Source: a virus
Lineage: Duplodnaviria; Heunggongvirae; Uroviricota; Caudoviricetes
Virus record (IMG/VR): IMGVR_UViG_2617270939_000004
Span: 1-10,894 of that record
Strand: one strand, 5' to 3'
Length of the DNA stretch: 10,894 bases
Each line of letters opens with the position of its first letter. Positions within the stretch are counted from its first letter, which is position 1. Positions 560-10,894 of the stretch are shown here, piece after piece. The notes under the pieces were generated by a model. That model was not told where the DNA came from. It worked only from the letters and a program-made list of their open reading frames with translations, and did not search any database. The position numbers and the translations under genes were made by a program.

Positions 560-802
560 GTGAGTAATTCATTGGTTAAGACTATCGAATATAATGGAAA
601 TGCAGGCGGTGTAATGAAGTTCACCTATCGTGAATTTGCAAACGATATGGCTCGTGCAGCATTTACAACAGATTTTTCTGTAGATTCTAAGGGAAGTGAT
701 GTTATCGCTTACAAAGGTGCCAAGTTCAAAGTGAACAAGGCTGATAACTCGTCTATTTCTTATACAATTATTTCTGGCTTTGACAAGGCTGTCACGTTCT
801 AG
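560..802 (+). CDS. Hypothetical small protein, possibly the 3' remnant of a gene interrupted by the IS
   Basis: The reading frame is open from 446 to 802, crossing the IS boundary at 461/462. No convincing ribosome-binding site precedes GTG 560 or the first in-frame ATG at 614. The product is Ser/Thr/Asn/Lys-rich and ends in ...GFDKAVTF. I recognise no family. AT-rich like the downstream operon. Confidence 0.3.
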   Translation: MSNSLVKTIEYNGNAGGVMKFTYREFANDMARAAFTTDFSVDSKGSDVIAYKGAKFKVNKADNSSISYTIISGFDKAVTF

Positions 803-2471: not shown

Positions 2472-3509
2472 TTATTCCTGAACACCTAAAACATAGTCAT
2501 CAAAACGTATTACTTCTGCACCCACCCATTCGTTTAGTTCATGTAGTCGCTTCTGTAGTGGCATCAATTCATTGCGAACAAATACAAGACTAGCCTTCTC
2601 CACATCCCCAAAACCCCCAACATTATTTGGCATAATCCCCATCATCTGTGGCGGAACGCGATGTGCTGCCATCATGTCATCGCGGCTGACATTTTTGATA
2701 TTCAGAAACTCATCCTTCGCCGCAACTTCTGACAAAGGGATGATCTGAAGGCCGTCCTTTTTGCCGTTAGGCGAGTACATAAACAGGTTGCGGAAGTTGC
2801 CTGGACCTTTGGCGCTTTTCATCGCGTTGCGGAGATTGTTCACATCCTCCTGATTCTGCGCGGCGTCGGTCATGTACATGATGAAGCCTGCATGGCTGCC
2901 GTTGATGTAATACTTACGGCGGAACAGCGTGGCGGACTCATTGAGCAGGGCTGACGGAATGGCAGAAAGATAGCCGGGCAGGCCGTAGATCTCCTGGTTA
3001 ATGTCCGGTTCCATCAGATGAAAGATGCTGCCTTTCGTGAACTGATACGGCTGTGTTGTCATACCGTATTGCACAAACCAGTAGGTTTCTAGGTCTAACC
3101 CGCGTCGGGTGTATTTTGCCAGGGCCGGTTCAAGGGCGATAACTTCACCGAAGCGGTTCGTGCGTTTCTCCAGGTAGGCGTTACCAAATACCAGATAGTC
3201 CTGCACAAAACGTGAAAAAGCCTGCTGGCTGAGCAGCGGGTGAGGGATGTAGGTACTGGTCAGAATGTTGCACTTTACTGCAATCGGGGAACTGTGATGC
3301 ACAGCAGCGCGGAAGGTGCGCGCCAGTCCGTCAAAGCTGACAGGAGGCTCATACCAGCGATCTGTCTGTACGCATTCCACATAGTCCAGCAGTTCGCGGC
3401 GGTCAAGTACTGGAATGGGATCACCGAAGCTGAATGCTTCGGCTGTAGTCTGGCTTTTAAGCTGGCTCTGTTTCGTCGCCGCAGCGCGGTTCTTCTTACT
3501 CTTTCCCAT
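2472..3509 (-). CDS. Q: P2-family portal protein gpQ
   Basis: The 345-aa translation closely follows P2 gpQ as I recall it (...FGDPIPVLDRRELLDYVECVQTDRWYEPPVSFDGLARTFRAA...). I place the start at ATG 3507-3509, preceded by GGAG, rather than the TTG at 3510-3512 used by the ORF track. This ATG overlaps the stop of P by one base. Confidence 0.93.
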   Translation of the reverse strand: MGKSKKNRAAATKQSQLKSQTTAEAFSFGDPIPVLDRRELLDYVECVQTDRWYEPPVSFDGLARTFRAAVHHSSPIAVKCNILTSTYIPHPLLSQQAFSRFVQDYLVFGNAYLEKRTNRFGEVIALEPALAKYTRRGLDLETYWFVQYGMTTQPYQFTKGSIFHLMEPDINQEIYGLPGYLSAIPSALLNESATLFRRKYYINGSHAGFIMYMTDAAQNQEDVNNLRNAMKSAKGPGNFRNLFMYSPNGKKDGLQIIPLSEVAAKDEFLNIKNVSRDDMMAAHRVPPQMMGIMPNNVGGFGDVEKASLVFVRNELMPLQKRLHELNEWVGAEVIRFDDYVLGVQE

Positions 3510-5275
3510 CAAAAAATCTCCACAATATTGCTGGTATTGGCGGACTCGCCCTGCAGCGGTTCGTTAAAGAGTGCGTGCATTGTTGCCCAAGCCAGATCGG
3601 CATGGCTGGCTTCTTCGCTGCGGCTGGCTTCATAGGTCGGGCGGTTGCCGCTGGCGGTGGTGGCGCGACGGATTGCCATGAATGACTGCGCAATGTCGGT
3701 GTGTCCGGCGTCAAATTCTAGGCGGCGGTGACTGATAATGTCGTAGGCCTTGAGTACCAGGGCGTTTTTAACGTTGGGGTTGTAGACAAACTCCCGGACG
3801 GCAGGAAAGAATGCTTTCACGTTCTCGTAAACCCCGTGGCCGACGCCAGTTGAGTCGATGCCGATGTATGTCACGTTGTACTGTTCGGTCAGTTTTTTGA
3901 TGGCGTCAGCCTGGGCGCGGAAGTCCACCCCGCGCCACTGGTGACGCTCAAGAATGCGGAACTTACCGCCCGGCACGGCTGGCGGTGCCACCACTACGCA
4001 TCCGGCGCTGTCGCCGTTTTGCGTACCTTTTGCCGGGTCATAACCGATCCACACTTCGCGCCAGCCAAAGGGGCGCAGAGCCAGTGCATGAAAGTCGGTC
4101 CAGACTTCCCAGCTGTCCACCATGCACGCCTGCAGCTCGCTGAGCGGGAACACGGACGCGAGATCGTCCACGAACTCGCACATCAGCAGGTTCTGGTATT
4201 CGTCCGGGCTGTACTCCATGCGCAACTGGTCAAGGTCGAACAGGTTACAGCCGCCGCGCACCGCATCTTCCACGGTGACTATCTGGCGGTATTGCCCGTC
4301 TGCGCACAGCAGGCCGGGGGCCAGATTGCTGTGGGACAGGTCGATGTCCACCTTATCGGCTTTGTTGCGCCCACGGTTGAACAGCGCACCAGACCAGAAC
4401 GGATAAGCACTGTGTGTCAGGCTGGATGGCGTGGAAAAATAGGTTTGTCGCCATTTTTTGTGAATAGCCATACCGGAAGCCACTTTGCGCAGCTCCTGGA
4501 ATTTCGGTATCCAGAAATATTCATCCAGATACAGGTTGCCGTGATAACTCTGGGCAGTGCGGGCATTGGTGCCGAGGAAGTAAAGCGTGGCCCCGTTAGG
4601 AAGCACCATCGGATCGCCTTTCAGCTCCACCTCGACTTCTTTGGCGAAGTCGATGATGTATTGCTTAAAGACGTGAGCCTGTGCCTTACTGGCAGAAAGG
4701 AAAATCTGGTTACGTCCGGTAAGCAGGGCGTCAATCAGGGCTTCACGGGCAAAGTAAAAGGTCGCGCCGATCTGGCGTGACTTCAGCAGATTACGGATGC
4801 GGTTGGTTTTTCCAGCTTCCCACCAGTGGCGCTGGTAGTTGAACATGGAGGAATGGAAGATTTCTTCCAGCTTCTCAATCTGTTCATCGGTGAAAACATT
4901 CTTTTCCGGCTGACGGCGCGGCCCTTTGTTGCGGTTGGCGACGTTAGGGTTTAAGTCGGCTTCGTTGCCGCCATTGTTAAACTTGCCGATCCGCGCGTGG
5001 CGCTCCGACTGGCGTGCCAGCAGGTCAATTTCTTTGAAATCTTTCCCTTCTTTGTGCTCCTTCATAATGAGCTGGCAATAGCGTGCGGCGGTGGTGAGCT
5101 GCATCTGATCCAGCGGCCCATAGTCACCCCACTTGTCGCGTTTTTTCCAGCTGTGAACGGTTGCAACTTTCTCGCCCAGCATTTCAGCAATGCGGGCTAC
5201 GCGGTATCCCTGAAAGTACAGCAGCATGGCCTGCCGACGGGGATCGAGATCTGCGGGTGTCAGTGTGGTGTTCAT
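3509..5275 (-). CDS. P: P2-family terminase large (ATPase) subunit gpP
   Basis: 588 aa, the size and sequence character of P2 gpP. It lies immediately upstream of Q on the same strand with an overlapping stop/start, matching the P2 Q-P arrangement. Confidence 0.93.
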   Translation of the reverse strand: MNTTLTPADLDPRRQAMLLYFQGYRVARIAEMLGEKVATVHSWKKRDKWGDYGPLDQMQLTTAARYCQLIMKEHKEGKDFKEIDLLARQSERHARIGKFNNGGNEADLNPNVANRNKGPRRQPEKNVFTDEQIEKLEEIFHSSMFNYQRHWWEAGKTNRIRNLLKSRQIGATFYFAREALIDALLTGRNQIFLSASKAQAHVFKQYIIDFAKEVEVELKGDPMVLPNGATLYFLGTNARTAQSYHGNLYLDEYFWIPKFQELRKVASGMAIHKKWRQTYFSTPSSLTHSAYPFWSGALFNRGRNKADKVDIDLSHSNLAPGLLCADGQYRQIVTVEDAVRGGCNLFDLDQLRMEYSPDEYQNLLMCEFVDDLASVFPLSELQACMVDSWEVWTDFHALALRPFGWREVWIGYDPAKGTQNGDSAGCVVVAPPAVPGGKFRILERHQWRGVDFRAQADAIKKLTEQYNVTYIGIDSTGVGHGVYENVKAFFPAVREFVYNPNVKNALVLKAYDIISHRRLEFDAGHTDIAQSFMAIRRATTASGNRPTYEASRSEEASHADLAWATMHALFNEPLQGESANTSNIVEIF

Positions 5276-5417: not shown

Positions 5418-6251
5418 ATGACAGTGAAAGCAAAGCGTTTTCGCATCGGGGTGGAAGGTGCCACCACCGACGGACGCGAAATCCAGCGTGAATGGCTGGA
5501 ACAGATGGCAGCCAGCTACAACCCGACGATGTACACCGCGCTGATTAACCTTGAGCACATCAAGTCTTATCTGCCGGACAGCACCTTTAACCGCTACGGC
5601 AAGGTGACGGCGCTGTTTGCTGAAGAAATCACGGAAGGTCCGCTGGCAGGCAAGATGGCGCTGTATGCCGACGTTGAGCCAACGGAATCACTGGTGGAAC
5701 TGGTGAAAAAAGGCCAGAAATTATTCACCTCTATGGAAGTCAGCCCGAAGTTTGCTGATACGGGCAAAGCCTACCTGGTCGGCCTGGCTGCCACTGATGA
5801 CCCTGCCAGTCTGGGCACTGAAATGCTGACATTCAGCGCCAGTGCAGCCCATAACCCGCTGGCAAACCGCAAGCAGAATCCCGCCAATCTTTTTACCGCT
5901 GCAGAGGAAACGGTGATCGAACTGGAAGAAATCCAGGATGACAAACCGTCCCTGTTTGCCCGTGTCACGGCGCTGTTCACCAAAAAAGAGCAGTCCGATG
6001 ACGCCCGGTTCTCTGATGTGCATAAGGCCGTGGAACTGGTCGCCACTGAGCAGCAGAACCTGAGTGCGCGCACCGAAAAATCCCTGTCTGAGCAGGAAGA
6101 ACGCCTGTCTGAGCTGGAGACTGCCCTGCAGGCACAGCAGACCGCCTTTAACGAACTGGTGGACAAGCTGAGCCAAGAAGACAGCCGCCAGGACTACCGC
6201 CAGCGTGCAACAGGCGGTAACGCCCCCGCTGACACTCTGACCAATTGCTGA
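5418..6251 (+). CDS. O: P2-family capsid scaffolding protein gpO
   Basis: 277 aa, diverging from P at the position P2 O occupies. The sequence resembles P2 gpO from memory, including a C-terminus ending ...TNC. Confidence 0.9.
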   Translation: MTVKAKRFRIGVEGATTDGREIQREWLEQMAASYNPTMYTALINLEHIKSYLPDSTFNRYGKVTALFAEEITEGPLAGKMALYADVEPTESLVELVKKGQKLFTSMEVSPKFADTGKAYLVGLAATDDPASLGTEMLTFSASAAHNPLANRKQNPANLFTAAEETVIELEEIQDDKPSLFARVTALFTKKEQSDDARFSDVHKAVELVATEQQNLSARTEKSLSEQEERLSELETALQAQQTAFNELVDKLSQEDSRQDYRQRATGGNAPADTLTNC

Positions 6252-6267
6252 TGGAGCACAAAACCTG

Positions 6268-6441
6268 ATGAAGAAGAACACCCGCCGCCGTTCAGTTATC
6301 GACAACCCGAAACGTGACCGGATTGAAAACTTTGAATCCGTTAACGAAGCCTATGTGGTTGAGGACTACCGCTGCGCCGCACTGGTGGAAAACATCCAGA
6401 TTGGTGATTTCAGCGCCGCCGCAGCCGAAACCGGAGCGTAA
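6268..6441 (+). pseudogene. N: Remnant of major capsid gene N (57 codons, where P2 N is about 357)
   Basis: This short ORF (MKKNTRRRSVIDNPKRDRIENFESVNEAYVVEDYRCAALVENIQIGDFSAAAAETGA) occupies the N position between O and M. It resembles the extreme C-terminus of P2 gpN as I recall it (...RRVIEENPKLDRVENYESMNIDYVVEDY...VGDFS...). The stop is 3 nt before the M start, as at a normal N-M junction. Confidence 0.55.
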
Positions 6442-6444
6442 TCC

Positions 6445-7095
6445 ATGAGCCTGAGTCCCGCACGGCAGCATCGCCTGCGCGTTCAGGCTGAACAGGCCGC
6501 CCGCGAGGGCGGCAGTGTTCGCCACGCATCGGGCTATGACCTGATGCTGCTGCAACTGGCGGAAGACCGCCGCCGTCTCAAGGGCGTTCAGTCCACGGTC
6601 AAAAAAGCGGAAATCAAGGTGGAGCTGCTGCCGAAGTACGCCGCCTGGGCAGAGGGTGTCCTGGCTGCCGGAGGCGCTCAACAGGATGACGTGCTGATGT
6701 ACGTGATGCTGTGGCGCATTGATGCCGGAGATTATGCCGGAGCGCTGGAGATCGGGCGTCATGCCCTGCGTCATGGCTGGGTGATGCCGCTGGGTAACCG
6801 CAACGTGCAGACCGTGCTGGCAGAGGAAATGGCAGACGCCGCGCAGAGCGCAATGCTTGCCACCACCGGCTTTGATGCCGATCTGTTGCTGCAGACGCTG
6901 GAGCTGACAGACGGTCTGGATATGCCGGACCAGTCACGGGCGCGTCTGCATAAAGCGATTGGCGCGGTCCTGAGTGAAAGCAATCCGGCGTCTGCCCTTA
7001 ATCATCTCAACCATGCGTTACAGCTCGATCCCCGCTGTGGCGTGAAAAAAGACAAACAGCAGCTGGAGCGCAGACTGCGCAATGACAGCCGCTGA
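6445..7095 (+). CDS. M: P2-family terminase small (endonuclease) subunit gpM
   Basis: 216 aa. The N-terminal region (MSLSPARQHRLRVQAEQAAREGGSVRHASGYDLMLLQLAEDRRRLKGVQS...DDVLMYVMLWRIDAGDYAGALEI...) matches P2 gpM by recollection, and the gene follows N in P2 order. Confidence 0.9.
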   Translation: MSLSPARQHRLRVQAEQAAREGGSVRHASGYDLMLLQLAEDRRRLKGVQSTVKKAEIKVELLPKYAAWAEGVLAAGGAQQDDVLMYVMLWRIDAGDYAGALEIGRHALRHGWVMPLGNRNVQTVLAEEMADAAQSAMLATTGFDADLLLQTLELTDGLDMPDQSRARLHKAIGAVLSESNPASALNHLNHALQLDPRCGVKKDKQQLERRLRNDSR

Positions 7096-7190
7096 CAGAA
7101 CGTGCCCCCGCGCACGGGCGGCACGGGGTGGCGAAAGGCACTGCCACATCAAAACCCCGTCCACCGCCCTCTATTTCAGGAGAAAGCAGC

Positions 7191-7730
7191 ATGAAGTTTG
7201 TTGCGCCAGAACAGGCACCGGAACAGGCGGAAATCATCAGAAATACGCCGTTCTGGCCTGATGTGGACCTGTCGGAGTTTCGCAGTGTCATGCGCACTGA
7301 CGGCACGGTGACGCAGCCGCGTTTAAAGCAGGTTGCGCTGTCGGCAATTTCGGAGGTCAACGCAGAGCTGTATGAGTTTCGCAGACGCCAGCAGATGCTG
7401 GGGTATGCCTCGCTGGCAGAGGTTCCGGCGGAACAGCTGGACGGCAAAAGTGAGCGCATTCAGCACTATTTCAACGCGGTTTACTGCTGGGCACGCGCCA
7501 TGCTCAACGAACGTTACCAGGACTATGACACCACGGCATCCGGTGTGAAGCGGGGCGAGGAACTGGCGGAAGCCAGCGGTGATTTATGGCGTGACGCCCG
7601 CTGGGCCATCAGCCGGGTAGATGATGCGGAATGGACCATTACGACTCTGACGCATACCGTCAGCCCCGATAACGGTTTTACAACCAGTCTGGAGCTTGAA
7701 GTGAGGATTGATGATTTCGAAATGGAATGA
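7191..7730 (+). CDS. L: P2-family head completion protein gpL, with a C-terminus that may be altered by a deletion junction
   Basis: I start it at ATG 7191, which has AGGAG at 7178-7182 eight nt upstream; the ORF-track start at 7128 lacks comparable support. The product is 179 aa. The central region (...NAELYEFRRRQ...LAEVPAEQLDG...DLWRDARWAI...) is gpL-like. The last 35 residues or so do not resemble the gpL end I recall. Confidence 0.75.
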   Translation: MKFVAPEQAPEQAEIIRNTPFWPDVDLSEFRSVMRTDGTVTQPRLKQVALSAISEVNAELYEFRRRQQMLGYASLAEVPAEQLDGKSERIQHYFNAVYCWARAMLNERYQDYDTTASGVKRGEELAEASGDLWRDARWAISRVDDAEWTITTLTHTVSPDNGFTTSLELEVRIDDFEME

Positions 7731-7820
7731 TTCTTCGCAATGGAGAACTTTTAAGTTTGCAAAATGGAATAATGCGGTATCATTATTGTGAATTTAGCAA
7801 AAATGGGGAGAACTCGAAAA

Positions 7821-8039
7821 ATGATGATTTGCCCACTGTGTGGAAGTGCCGCCCATACTCGCAGCAGTTTTCAGGTATCTTCATTGACCAAAGAGCGTTA
7901 CAACCAGTGCCAGAACATTAACTGCAGCCATACTTTTGTTACCCATGAAACTTTTGTTCGTTCGATTGCAACGCCAAAAGAGTCAAATCCGGTTCAGCCG
8001 CATCCAATGAAATCAGGACAGGTGGCGCTCTCTCTTTGA
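7821..8039 (+). CDS. ogr: Ogr/Delta-family zinc-finger late-gene transcription activator
   Basis: 72 aa starting MMICPLCGSAAHTRSS..., with an exact C4-x2-C7-x22-C30-x4-C35 zinc-finger spacing, as in P2 Ogr. GGGGAG (7806-7811) lies upstream of ATG 7821. The ORF-track GTG start at 7788 is probably too far upstream. Confidence 0.88.
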   Translation: MMICPLCGSAAHTRSSFQVSSLTKERYNQCQNINCSHTFVTHETFVRSIATPKESNPVQPHPMKSGQVALSL

Positions 8040-8125
8040 CGCTGCCGCCATTTTGTCGCCATCGTTAAAAAACAGTGTTTCTAACATCATGATTTTAAAC
8101 AGCTTAAATTTCAGGCAACAAAAAA

Positions 8126-8162
8126 CCCATCAACCTTGAACCGAAATGGCGGGGTTGATGGG
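8126..8162 (-). terminator. Rho-independent terminator downstream of ybjL
   Basis: CCCATCAACC (8126-8135) pairs with GGTTGATGGG (8153-8162) in a 10-bp stem around a 17-nt loop. On the minus strand it is followed by a run of six T (complement of 8120-8125). Confidence 0.5.
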
Positions 8163-8274
8163 CTCCACAAAATGGGGACATCAAAGAAAAGCAGTGGCAC
8201 TAATTAAGACTGATGCCCTGCGGAAAAGTTCTGCGGTTGTGCAAAAAAATTTCATTTTCAGGGCAACTTCAGTT

Positions 8275-9960
8275 TTATCCTAATCCTGGCCATACCATGA
8301 CGATGATTGTCCCTGCCAGCGTCAGCAGGACGTTGGCGATTGCGTAGGTGCCCGCATAGCCCAGCGCAGGGATGTTACTGCGAGCTGTATCACTGATGAT
8401 CTCCATTGCCGGCGCGCAGGTGCGTGCGCCCATCATTGCGCCGAACAACAGTGCGCGGTTCATTCGCAATACATAAGCACCGAACAAGAAACAGATAACC
8501 ACGGGCACAAGACTGACAATTAATCCGGCAATCAACATCTGACCGCCAATCGCGCCCAGGCCGTTATTAATACCGCTACCGGCGCTCAGACCAACGCCTG
8601 CCATAAACACCATCAAGCCGAACTCTTTCACCATGCTTAATGCACCTTGCGGAATGTAACCGAAGGTCGGGTGGTTAGCACGCATAAAGCCCAGCATAAT
8701 TCCGGCGAATAACAACCCGGCAGCGTTCCCCATGCCGAAACTGAATGTGCTGAACTGGAAGGTGATCATCCCGATCATCAGCCCAATAACAAAGAAGGCG
8801 CAAAATGCCAGCAGGTCAGTGACCTGGCTGTGAATCGAGATAAAGCCGATGCGATCGGCGATGGTTTTTACGCGACGGGCATCACCGCTGACTTGTAAAA
8901 CGTCACCTTTGTTAAGCACGACGTTGTCATCTATCGGCATCTCAATCTGGCTACGAATGACGCGGTTAAGGAAGCAACCGTGATCGGTCAACTTCAGTTG
9001 TGCGAGACGTTTACCTACAGCGTTATGGTTTTTAACGACCACTTCTTCAGTGACGATACGCATGTCGAGAAGGTCACGATCGAAAACTTCTTTACCGTTA
9101 CGGAAGCTGGGATCGAGTCGGGCATGGGCGTCGGGATAGCCTACCAACGCTATTTCATCGCCCATTTGTAGCACGGCATCACCGTCTGGATTTGCCAGAA
9201 TCCCGTTACGTCGAATACGTTCAATGTAGCAGCCGGTTTGTCGATAAATACCCAGTTCACGCAGATTTTTGCCGTCGGTCCAGGCCACCAGCTCCGGGCC
9301 GACGCGATAGGCGCGGATCACCGGTAAATAAACCTTACGGTTGGCATCAGTGTCCAGGCCACGTTCGCGGGCGATTTGCTGGGCGCTGGTCTGTAAGTCC
9401 TGATGCTGCAATTTCGGCAAGTAACGCGCACCAACAATCAAACTCACCAGACCGATTAAATAGGTTAAGGCATACCCGAGGCTCAGATTATCCAGTGCCA
9501 GTGAGAGCTGCCTGCTTTCCATGCCGGAATGACGCAGTGTATCGCCAGCACCGACCAGAACCGGTGTCGACGTCATAGAGCCTGCTAACATACCGGCCGT
9601 CAGGCCAATATCCCAGCCAAACAGCTTACCTAACCCTAAGGCGATCACCAGCGCACTGCCAACCATCACCAGTGCTAACATTAGGTAATTTTTCCCATCG
9701 CGAAAAAAAATGGAAAAAAAGTTCGGTCCGGCTTCGACCCCGACGCAGAAAATAAACAGCATAAAGCCAAGATTAAGCGCGTCGGTGTTAATGCTGAAAT
9801 GTTGTTGGCCTAATAACAGTGATACGACCAAAACGCCAATGGAATTACCCAGTTGGATCGAACCAAGTCGTAACTTTCCGAGACATAGCCCAAGCGCGAG
9901 GACCACAAATAATAACAGAATGTAATTCCCATTTAACAATTCGGCGACGTTTATATTCAC
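8275..9960 (-). CDS. ybjL: Putative transport protein YbjL (AAE-family inner-membrane transporter)
   Basis: The 561-aa translation ([39 protein letters not shown]...VMVWPGLG) matches E. coli YbjL from memory. It is multi-spanning and hydrophobic, with a central soluble region. Confidence 0.93.
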
Positions 9961-10229
9961 GGAGGCTAACTTCTTGTTTACTAGTAAGCTGTTGAAAGAA
10001 ATGGTAATTTACGATAATGTTTTTTACCAGAATTCAGGGCGCAGATTCATTCAGCGCACCTAAACGATAGTAAAGTAACAATATATTTTACTAGTGTAAT
10101 CACATTAGGTATCAACGGCTATATGAATTGCGTTGGCCTATATTAGCATGGAATGCGAAGCGGCTTTATCTTACTGAACGCCACACTGGCGAAAAATGTG
10201 TTCGATAGACGCAGTGTCAGGAGGAACGA

Positions 10230-10607
10230 GTGAAACATAAACAACGTTGGGCGGGGGCAATCTGCTGTTTTGTCCTCTTCATTGTGGTGTGCCTTTTTCT
10301 GGCGACGCACATGAAAGGCGCTTTTCGGGCTGCCGGGCATCCTGAAATCGGCTTGCTGTTTTTCATTCTTCCTGGAGCAGTTGCCAGTTTCTTTTCACAG
10401 CGTAGAGAAGTCCTGAAACCTCTATTTGGCGCAATGCTGGCGGCACCCTGTTCAATGCTTATTATGCGGCTGTTTTTTTCACCGACCCGCTCATTCTGGC
10501 AAGAGCTGGCATGGTTACTAAGCGCGGTGTTCTGGTGTGCGCTGGGGGCACTGTGTTTCTTATTTATCAGTAGTTTGTTTAAACCACAGCACAGAAAAAA
10601 TCAGTAA
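10230..10607 (+). CDS. ybjM: Inner membrane protein YbjM
   Basis: 125-aa hydrophobic protein with a GTG start preceded by CAGGAGG. Its position between ybjL and grxA and its divergent orientation match the E. coli ybjL-ybjM-grxA arrangement. Confidence 0.88.
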   Translation: MKHKQRWAGAICCFVLFIVVCLFLATHMKGAFRAAGHPEIGLLFFILPGAVASFFSQRREVLKPLFGAMLAAPCSMLIMRLFFSPTRSFWQELAWLLSAVFWCALGALCFLFISSLFKPQHRKNQ

Positions 10608-10627
10608 AGCCCTCAACGCGAGGGCTT
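10607..10627. terminator. Shared hairpin terminator between convergent ybjM and grxA
   Basis: AAGCCCTC (10607-10614) pairs with GAGGGCTT (10620-10627) around a 5-nt loop, placed between the two convergent stop codons. Confidence 0.5.
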
Positions 10628-10636
10628 GTCAGACGA

Positions 10637-10894
10637 TCAGGCGTCCAGATTTTCTTTCACCCATGCAGCAAAATCGGTATAGCCGCCGATATGTTGCTGA
10701 TCGACAAAAATCTGCGGCACGGTTTCTACGGGTTTACCTGCCTTTTGTTGTAGATCTTCTTTAGTGATCCCTTCCGCACGAATATCTACATACTGATACT
10801 GAAAATCATCGCGTTCATTGCTCAATTTCTCAGCCAGATCTTTTGCACGCACACAGTAAGGGCAACCCGAACGACCAAAAATAACGGTTTGCAT
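10637..10894 (-). CDS. grxA: Glutaredoxin 1
   Basis: The 85-aa translation MQTVIFGRSGCPYCVRAKDLAEKL...AAWVKENLDA carries the CPYC active site and matches E. coli GrxA. The start codon sits at the very end of the window. Confidence 0.95.
   Translation of the reverse strand: MQTVIFGRSGCPYCVRAKDLAEKLSNERDDFQYQYVDIRAEGITKEDLQQKAGKPVETVPQIFVDQQHIGGYTDFAAWVKENLDA

Follow-up and report, generated by a model that had tools for sequence, protein, structure and literature searches.

Prophages decay in steps in which lytic functions are lost and fragments are left by the att sites, while the surviving genes may stay intact (PMC6379469). The cryptic prophage PR-X of E. coli K-12 (ogrK and yegZ, a pseudogene derived from D) retains a 3′ fragment of gene D, the D–ogr spacer, ogr and an att site, its late genes being deleted. 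The same parts are retained by the element described here, which lies in a window of 10,894 nucleotides (the whole stretch of DNA that was analysed). PR-X, however, belongs to the true P2-type lineage, with about 72% identity over 96 nt to the D fragment of the window, and occupies a different chromosomal site. It retains 219 nt of D versus 112 nt in the window, its left side is all gone, with no fusion to L, and its breakpoint differs from the recurrent D endpoint reported below.

Much closer are intact relatives of the Elveevirus-like P2 group, namely Escherichia phage Cartapus, Klebsiella phage 4LV2017 and the prophage of E. coli L73. They have the gene order of the window and are 95–99% identical to it at the nucleotide level in Q, P, O, M, L, the 3′ end of D, ogr and attR. 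All three contain a complete 15.3-kb block from X to D and a gpL of 154 aa, whereas the window lacks this block and most of N. The present case also differs from general prophage decay in that many independent deletions share an endpoint precise to the nucleotide and several other sites are reused.

Organisation of the element beside ybjL

The window is an exact copy of nt 2–10895 of contig JNQD01000105.1 (E. coli 2-156-04_S4_C2) and contains the right part of a P2-like prophage, beyond which lie E. coli genes. A fragment of an IS5-family element lies at the left edge; the left end of the draft contig breaks inside this IS. Two cargo genes follow (1113–2425), for which a padloc scan returned weak hits only. 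The portal gene Q (2472–3512, minus strand), the terminase gene P (3509–5275, minus strand), the scaffold gene O (5418–6251, plus strand) and the small terminase gene M (6445–7095, plus strand) are all full length; P, O and M have the same lengths as in L73. Between O and M, the major capsid gene has been reduced by an internal in-frame deletion to a stump of 57 aa, N′ (6268–6441, plus strand). M is followed by a chimeric ORF of 179 aa, L::D′ (7191–7730, plus strand), which starts at the ATG at 7191 and ends with the TGA stop at 7728–7730.

The chimera is followed by the native D–ogr intergenic spacer of 90 bp (7731–7820, plus strand), in which a consensus scan picks out a promoter-like pattern match, TTTGCA-16-TATCAT (7756–7783). 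The late-gene activator gene ogr (7821–8039, plus strand, ATG at 7821) is intact and encodes a zinc-finger protein of 72 aa with a match to Pfam Ogr_Delta (PF04606; E = 5e-22, residues 4–49). Its size, its zinc-finger domain and its position downstream of D are those of Ogr/Delta late-gene activators. The right boundary of the prophage is the attR core CAGGCAACAAAAAACCCAT (8112–8130, plus strand), located just upstream of the 3′ end of ybjL and identical to the annotated attR of phage 4LV2017. The host genes ybjL, ybjM and grxA lie to the right of it. The P2 cos 19-mer was searched for in the window and is absent.

Between attL and attR, an intact P2-like prophage has the full set of late genes: Q, P, O, N, M, L, X, lysis, R, S, V, W, J, I, H, G, FI, FII, E, T, U, D and ogr. 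The window has intact Q, P, O, M and ogr, an N of 57 aa and an L that is cut and fused; X through U are absent. The element is a defective P2-like prophage remnant.

Deletions relative to the L73 prophage

The apparently intact prophage of E. coli L73, which is integrated at the same ybjL site, was used as a reference. It is a proxy for the true parental phage, being 96.7% identical to the window in L and 95–97% across the head genes. Mapped on L73, the window forms four collinear blocks, with two jumps (18310→33617 and 16082→16956). The larger jump is a deletion of 15,324 bp that joins L nt 428 to D nt 990 of 1101. The deleted block comprises X, the holin and lysozyme genes, LysA/B/C, R, S, V, W, J, I, H, the invertible tail-fibre segment with its invertase, FI, FII, E/E′, T, U and 90% of D, and the element is therefore unable to make tails or lyse the cell. 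The initial annotation, made from the letters alone, had recognised that the genes between L and ogr are missing; it gave the L-to-ogr distance of P2 as about 20 kb, and in L73, the closest intact relative, the missing block measures 15.3 kb.

The second deletion has removed 885 bp (295 codons) from N, in frame, and its junction lies within a short repeat, (C)ACCCGC, at about 6279–6285. It is later than the L/D deletion: other carriers of the identical L::D′ junction keep an N of 352 aa. Such carriers (e.g. L008) have the L/D deletion only; over the rest of their sequence, identity to the window is 99.97%.

One internal illegitimate deletion of about 15.3 kb in a P2-like (Peduoviridae, Elveevirus-like) prophage beside ybjL fused L and D, a reading to which we assign a probability of about 0.95. 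The event is an ordinary scar of prophage decay.

The chimeric L::D′ protein and its junction

The L-derived part of the ORF (7191–7618, plus strand) corresponds to nt 1–428 of the 465 nt of L, and the D-derived 3′ fragment (7619–7730, plus strand) to D nt 990–1101, which are the last 36 codons and the stop. Residues 1–143 of the product are identical to gpL of L73 at 139 of 143 positions, and residues 144–179 match the gpD C-terminus of L73 at 36 of 36. At the DNA level, the L-derived part is identical to L of L73 at 414 of 428 positions, with 97–98% identity to Cartapus and other Elveevirus-like phages. Identity to the D–ogr region of L73 is complete in the D-derived part (112/112) and in the spacer (90/90), and reaches 218/219 in ogr.

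Pfam Phage_GPL (PF05926) covers residues 16–150 of the 179, at profile positions 1–135 of 139. The chimera holds 143 of the 154 aa of gpL; the last 11 L codons (QDAPHCTVELI) are missing. From gpD (baseplate hub, late control protein, PF05954) it holds only the last 36 of 366 residues, and the Pfam search of the chimera gave no gpD domain hit.

A BLAST search of 7100–8150 against phage records split the query in two. The left part (7100–7628) matches L of Cartapus-like phages with 97–98% identity, and the right part (7610–8150) matches the 'gpD-like tail protein / Ogr-like / attR' region of 4LV2017 with 96% identity; the two matches overlap by 19 bases (7610–7628). Three-way alignments, with Cartapus L and 4LV2017 D as well as with both parental regions of L73, place the switch of parents at 7618. 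At the breakpoint (7617–7619, plus strand), G7617 is specific to L, T7618 is common to both parents and A7619 is specific to D. The junction codon, GTA (Val143), is thus composed from L and D; both parents break at codon position 2, which keeps the reading frame through the fusion.

These results bear out what the initial annotation had proposed, with corrections to quantities only. It had suspected that the deletion junction falls in the 3′ end of L and connects it with the 3′ end of D, and the split BLAST matches and the alignments locate it there. The approximately 35 terminal residues that it found unlike gpL are a non-L tail of 36 residues (DDAEW...DDFEME); the product does not align end to end with gpL, as this tail is that of gpD, and the sequence downstream of it is the D–ogr spacer. 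The distance of 90 bp from the stop to ogr was exact. It was also right that the ORF is longer than gpL; the excess is, however, 25 codons over the true parent, gpL being 154 aa in the window's own phage lineage, and not about 10, a figure that was given relative to P2 L.

The breakpoint lies in a patch of imperfect similarity between L and D (7610–7628, plus strand; L, CAGCCGGGTGCAGGATGCG; D, CAGCCG-ATAGATGATGCG), in which 14 of 19 positions match and the perfect microhomology is 1 nt (T7618). The deletion is collinear and leaves few bases common to the parents at the junction, as in microhomology-mediated or illegitimate deletion, and other junctions in related remnants have 0–4 nt of microhomology. 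With a perfect microhomology of only 1 nt, 'microhomology-mediated' is a weak description of the L/D join.

In the proposed course of events, a P2-like prophage beside ybjL lost about 15.3 kb when L nt 428 was joined to D nt 989/990 in the same codon phase. The product is gpL residues 1–143 extended by the final 36 residues of gpD; the D–ogr spacer, ogr and attR downstream were left untouched. The ends may have been joined by RecA-independent end joining or by template switching at 1 nt of microhomology. This would have been a single deletion event, after which the remnant was probably inherited or moved by homologous recombination in its flanks, and went on losing DNA, the N deletion of the window included. 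The chimeric protein is most likely a functionless by-product. The public name therefore needs correcting: what hundreds of records list as a 'head completion/stabilization protein' is an L::D′ fusion that marks a dead prophage.

Distribution of the junction and decay of the remnant

The L::D′ junction is absent from all 5,426 complete RefSeq E. coli genomes and is known from draft or other assemblies only. The exact 179-aa chimera occurs on at least 234 public contigs (373 index blocks), including contigs of 5.2–5.3 Mb, and always beside ogr–ybjL; public records call it 'head completion/stabilization protein', among other names. An identical 80-nt junction is present in all ten loci fetched, which were assembled independently (NCBI, ENA, Logan). 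These loci show seven upstream architectures, ranging from A-cargo-Q-P-O-N-M-L::D′-ogr down to int-CI-cII-L::D′-ogr. Nine of them differ by 0–2 substitutions over the 4.3 kb of D′, ogr and host flank; in the tenth, the phage part is identical and there are 25 differences, all in host genes (a different ybjL allele).

The pattern suggests a single founding L/D deletion, after which further ones came rapidly. The remnant has also come to lie beside the different ybjL allele, probably either by its own transfer or by replacement of the flank. A single origin is deduced from the identity of the junction. Because deletions recur at the D endpoint and an independent event (L025) also used the L site (nt ~428), there is a small chance that L428 and D989 were joined a second time, independently.

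Two other remnants at the same ybjL site have different junctions. EC21Z-097 has a P′::D′ junction in which the D fragment starts at the same nucleotide as in the window; its Q–P segment is 94.6% identical to that of the window, which indicates a different phage of origin. PSJ-16 has an O′::D′ junction with a D fragment of 315 nt. Nested remnants in nearly identical hosts show with unusual clarity how quickly a prophage, once disabled, is pared away.

Alternative readings of the fusion

The uncommented public name and the strong Pfam GPL match would be consistent with a natural long variant of gpL, encoded by an L gene that adjoins ogr by nature. A tail matching the gpD C-terminus at every residue, followed by 90 bp of D–ogr spacer, leaves next to no room for such a variant. 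Moreover, every other member read from its 90%-identity cluster is 154 aa long, entries labelled partial aside, and in intact relatives at the same site the tail and lysis genes fill 15.3 kb between L and D. It is hardly more credible that the junction is an assembly chimera of a draft genome. The window does come from a draft contig with its left end broken in an IS, but the junction recurs unchanged in ten independent assemblies, with contigs of 5.2 and 5.3 Mb among them, and a microhomology of 1 nt could not mislead an assembler.

An improbable reading, if less so than these two, is that selection has kept the fusion in a functional element. The remnant would then be either a satellite-like element that has head genes only and relies on a helper phage for tails and lysis, or a domesticated cassette of ogr or defence cargo. 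The least-decayed carriers hold A, cargo, Q, P, O, N, M, L::D′ and ogr, all intact; both deletions of the window are in frame; and no remnant seen lacks ogr, which PR-X of E. coli K-12 has kept too. Yet at least seven further-deleted architectures in near-identical flanks, from which N, O, P, Q and replication genes have been lost, speak for ongoing decay, and the window is left without a usable capsid gene. The carriers were found by means of the chimera itself, which makes its retention an ascertainment effect, and two in-frame deletions are expected by chance in one case in nine. Decay after a single internal deletion is the reading retained here.

A recurrent endpoint in gene D

A search with the gpD C-terminus over 5.8 billion proteins returned more than 12 short chimeric ORFs in which an unrelated N-terminus leads into x-DDAEWTITTL..., the residue x being I, L or V in every case (an NTA codon). 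DNA was fetched for the chimeric-ORF hits and, together with two more complete genomes, gave 13 independent DNA-verified junctions, that of the window included. In all 13, the retained part of D starts exactly at TAGATGATGCGGAATGGAC. At least 13 independent deletions thus share the fixed endpoint ...CAGCCGA|TAGATGATGCGG..., in which the break is at D nt 988|989 and the T that follows it is window position 7618.

The left partners differ: L nt 427; P nt 1178 and 1457; the P–O spacer; N nt 371 and 896; LysA nt 69 and 91; FII nt 399; T nt 974, 2146 and 2372; and U nt 100. Further left partners were seen at the protein level only. The events took place in phages with different cargo genes and at different loci, namely ybjL, ssrA/smpB (L026) and a position beside another prophage (L027). 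The D end is invariant even with zero microhomology (L024). The left parents continue with T in 11 of the 13 junctions (p about 1e-5), and with CACCCGC in the other two.

In complete genomes, a 101-nt query centred on the site gave 1,311 D-positive records, of which 120 are partial within ±50 nt; every partial D hit sampled begins at the same T. The reciprocal class, in which the upstream half of D alone is kept, was not seen among these 1,311 records. The right end of the deletion is not random: this D gene has a strongly preferred break point. Within the limited literature that could be searched, no P2-like prophage is described in which deletions recur at an endpoint precise to the nucleotide. 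If deletions are channelled through specific nucleotides, prophage domestication would not be purely random decay, and the responsible activity could be identifiable by genetics.

Possible causes of the recurrent endpoint

At rolling-circle-origin nick sites and in IS-adjacent deletions, one invariant endpoint is joined to many variable partners with little or no homology. This fixed-end/variable-end signature is also that of the D hotspot; the D site, however, is unlike the P2-type ori nick, and the D junctions have no IS, inverted repeat or footprint. The P2 nick, at annotated nt 29892 (gcgcctc[G]gagtcctgtcaataac), does not resemble CAGCCGA|TAGATGATGCGG, and neither does its homologue inside gene A of L73, so a pseudo-origin for gpA, the rolling-circle Rep protein, was rejected; an 11/12 match, CCGATAGAAGAT, in the 3′ end of A lies away from the origin. 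A transposon or IS end was likewise rejected: there is no inverted copy in the window and no inverted repeat across D–ogr–attR, no second copy of the end sequence was found, and all 13 junctions are free of an adjacent IS.

A serine-invertase (Cin/Hin/Pin-type) site at the break does not apply either. The natural crossover sites of the L73 invertase, TTCTCNNAAACC-NN-GGTTTNNGAGAA, are unrelated to it; they are the classical TTCTCCCAAACC-AA-CGTTTATGAAAA, and AAACC/GGTTT arms are absent at the D, L and N break sites. For CRISPR self-targeting, no spacer-like hit was found in the 5,426 complete genomes (101-nt query, E ≤ 10) by megablast, which needs an exact 28-nt word and misses diverged spacers; the shortest hits were D fragments of 49–52 nt. 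A predicted hairpin has the D site at its 3′ foot (z = −2.8). Stalling or cleavage at hairpin feet was rejected, as the hairpin-foot energy of 38 break sites does not differ from background (p = 0.10 and 0.06) and the N site is unstructured. A mosaic boundary or the start of a conserved block at D nt 989 is contradicted by D of the ssrA type, which is 93–100% identical on both sides of this position and diverges past about nt 1060, with a mosaic boundary near nt 1060–1080. The att core is loosely similar to the D site (a CAG-N4-YA look); a secondary site for Int is unlikely, since the same break occurs in the ssrA-type phage, which has a different ogr/att/int module.

It is possible, though we hold it only tentatively, that a dedicated sequence-directed activity made the junction, by cutting or nicking at D nt 988|989 or by protecting the end there, e.g. 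through an exonuclease-blocking protein. A fixed D end would then join a variable upstream end, and L::D′ would be the product of a recurrent prophage-disabling process. Several observations argue for such an activity: the 13 verified left partners all abut one D nucleotide, in differing phages at ybjL, ssrA and a third locus; the D end stays fixed without microhomology; 120 of 1,311 D records are truncated around the site, every sampled one starting at the same T, with no reciprocal class; and other sites are reused, with TA at 12 of 35 breaks versus 4%. Against it, none of the candidates tested (invertase, transposon, ori, CRISPR, hairpin, mosaic, Int) fits, and in several left partners the sequence is similar to the deleted D flank (CAGCCG...), a likeness that would also arise from ordinary short-homology pairing. 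The hotspot might be due to a barrier to exonuclease or a protected end where D′ begins, or to a nuclease or topoisomerase with a site preference.

The wider proposal, that D nt 988|989 (window 7617|7618) and a handful of lesser 'SSG-N|TA' sites of the late region are targets of an undescribed sequence-directed activity, is somewhat more doubtful. If it were true, a host- or phage-encoded system of breakage-joining or end protection would repeatedly delete the tail and lysis module and leave harmless remnants, and the L::D′ scar of the window would be one footprint of that process.

Other reused break sites

All junctions harvested from the remnants give 35 unique break sites, and several of these are reused in independent events. 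The L site of the window junction also occurs in L025, joined there to LysA nt 152. P nt 895/896 is shared by L026 and L027, the cII site by L013 and L009, the P–O spacer by L009 and L031, and E′ nt 57–66 by L024 and L025. O nt 800–803 is used in PSJ-16, P0052 and L009, and N nt 895–897 in the window, L010, P0108 and L022.

The composition of the 35 sites is biased towards C or G at −4, G at −2, T at +1 and A at +2, and can be summarised as S-S-G at −4 to −2 with TA at +1/+2. The enrichment of TA after the break (background 4.1%) stays when the partners of the D site are left out. The protein-tail search, when repeated on the N site, gave scattered starts and partial recurrence only; the N site is a weaker hotspot than the D site.

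Break sites and decay of the remnants

The deletion junctions of the P2-like remnants studied here are concentrated on a few similar sites, as seen from 35 break sites of 20 remnant loci placed in the coordinates of the L73 prophage (L006, reverse complement), an apparently intact relative integrated at ybjL. The similar sites are CAGCCGA|TA, CAGCCGGG|TA, CAGCCGGG|TG, CAGGCGG|TA, TTCCGG|TA, GTGCGG|TA and AACGGA|TA; 10 of the 35 break sites have CAG 4–6 nt before the break, against a background of 7%. In the window, an in-frame 885-bp deletion at a (C)ACCCGC repeat has reduced major capsid gene N to a 57-aa remnant (6268–6441). The gene resumes at about N nt 896, a position common to three further independent junctions, found in remnant or prophage loci L010, P0108 and L022.

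Loci L007–L016, all of which carry the same L::D′ junction, where L is fused in frame to the 3′ end of D, display at least seven distinct further-deleted architectures in host backgrounds that are 0–2 substitutions apart over 4.3 kb; deletions therefore accumulated in this remnant much faster than point mutations. A comparison of L010 with window positions 6279–10894 showed that M (small terminase), L::D′, ogr (late-gene activator) and attR are 100% identical and that all 25 differences are located in host genes ybjL, ybjM and grxA. This identity of the phage part, with differences confined to host genes, indicates that recombination has transferred either the remnant or its flank from one host background to another.

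Attachment site and prophage types

The late genes of ybjL-type prophages and of ssrA-type prophages, which reside at another locus, are about 95–97% identical (L032 versus L73, D–ogr region). The ogr–spacer–att modules of the same two prophages are unrelated, and the mosaic boundary lies near D nt 1060–1080, shortly before the D stop codon. Overlapping the att core is an inverted repeat with perfect 10-bp arms, CCCATCAACC ... GGTTGATGGG (window 8121–8157), about 120 nt past the ybjL 3′ end; this repeat is probably the ybjL transcription terminator, reconstituted by phage sequence upon integration.

Left part of the window

A 150-nt block (853–1002) is conserved with about 90% identity across all related prophages and is kept whatever cargo flanks it, for example in L73 and in strains EC21Z-097 and PSJ-16, which contain other remnants. 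This block could be cos, but a search for the P2 cos 19-mer, allowing up to three mismatches, found no copy in the window. A two-gene cargo cassette (1113–2425) directly adjoins portal gene Q on its left and encodes two proteins: one of 324 aa that matches no Pfam family, and one of 112 aa that is DUF4325/STAS-like. Related prophages possess unrelated cargo at this position, including HsdR-N with a P-loop NTPase, TIR, retron-type RT and SMC-like ATPases. A padloc search of the cargo yielded weak matches only, to a DrmA-like segment (E=5e-6) and PDC-M65A (E=0.007); the cassette may represent an uncharacterised anti-phage system.

The contig starts within a partial IS5-family (DDE_Tnp_1) element (1–460). 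The ORF at 560/615–802 (window 560–802) is the 3′ remainder of a 225-aa gene, which is intact in L008 and L016 and split by the same IS in related loci L011 and L014.
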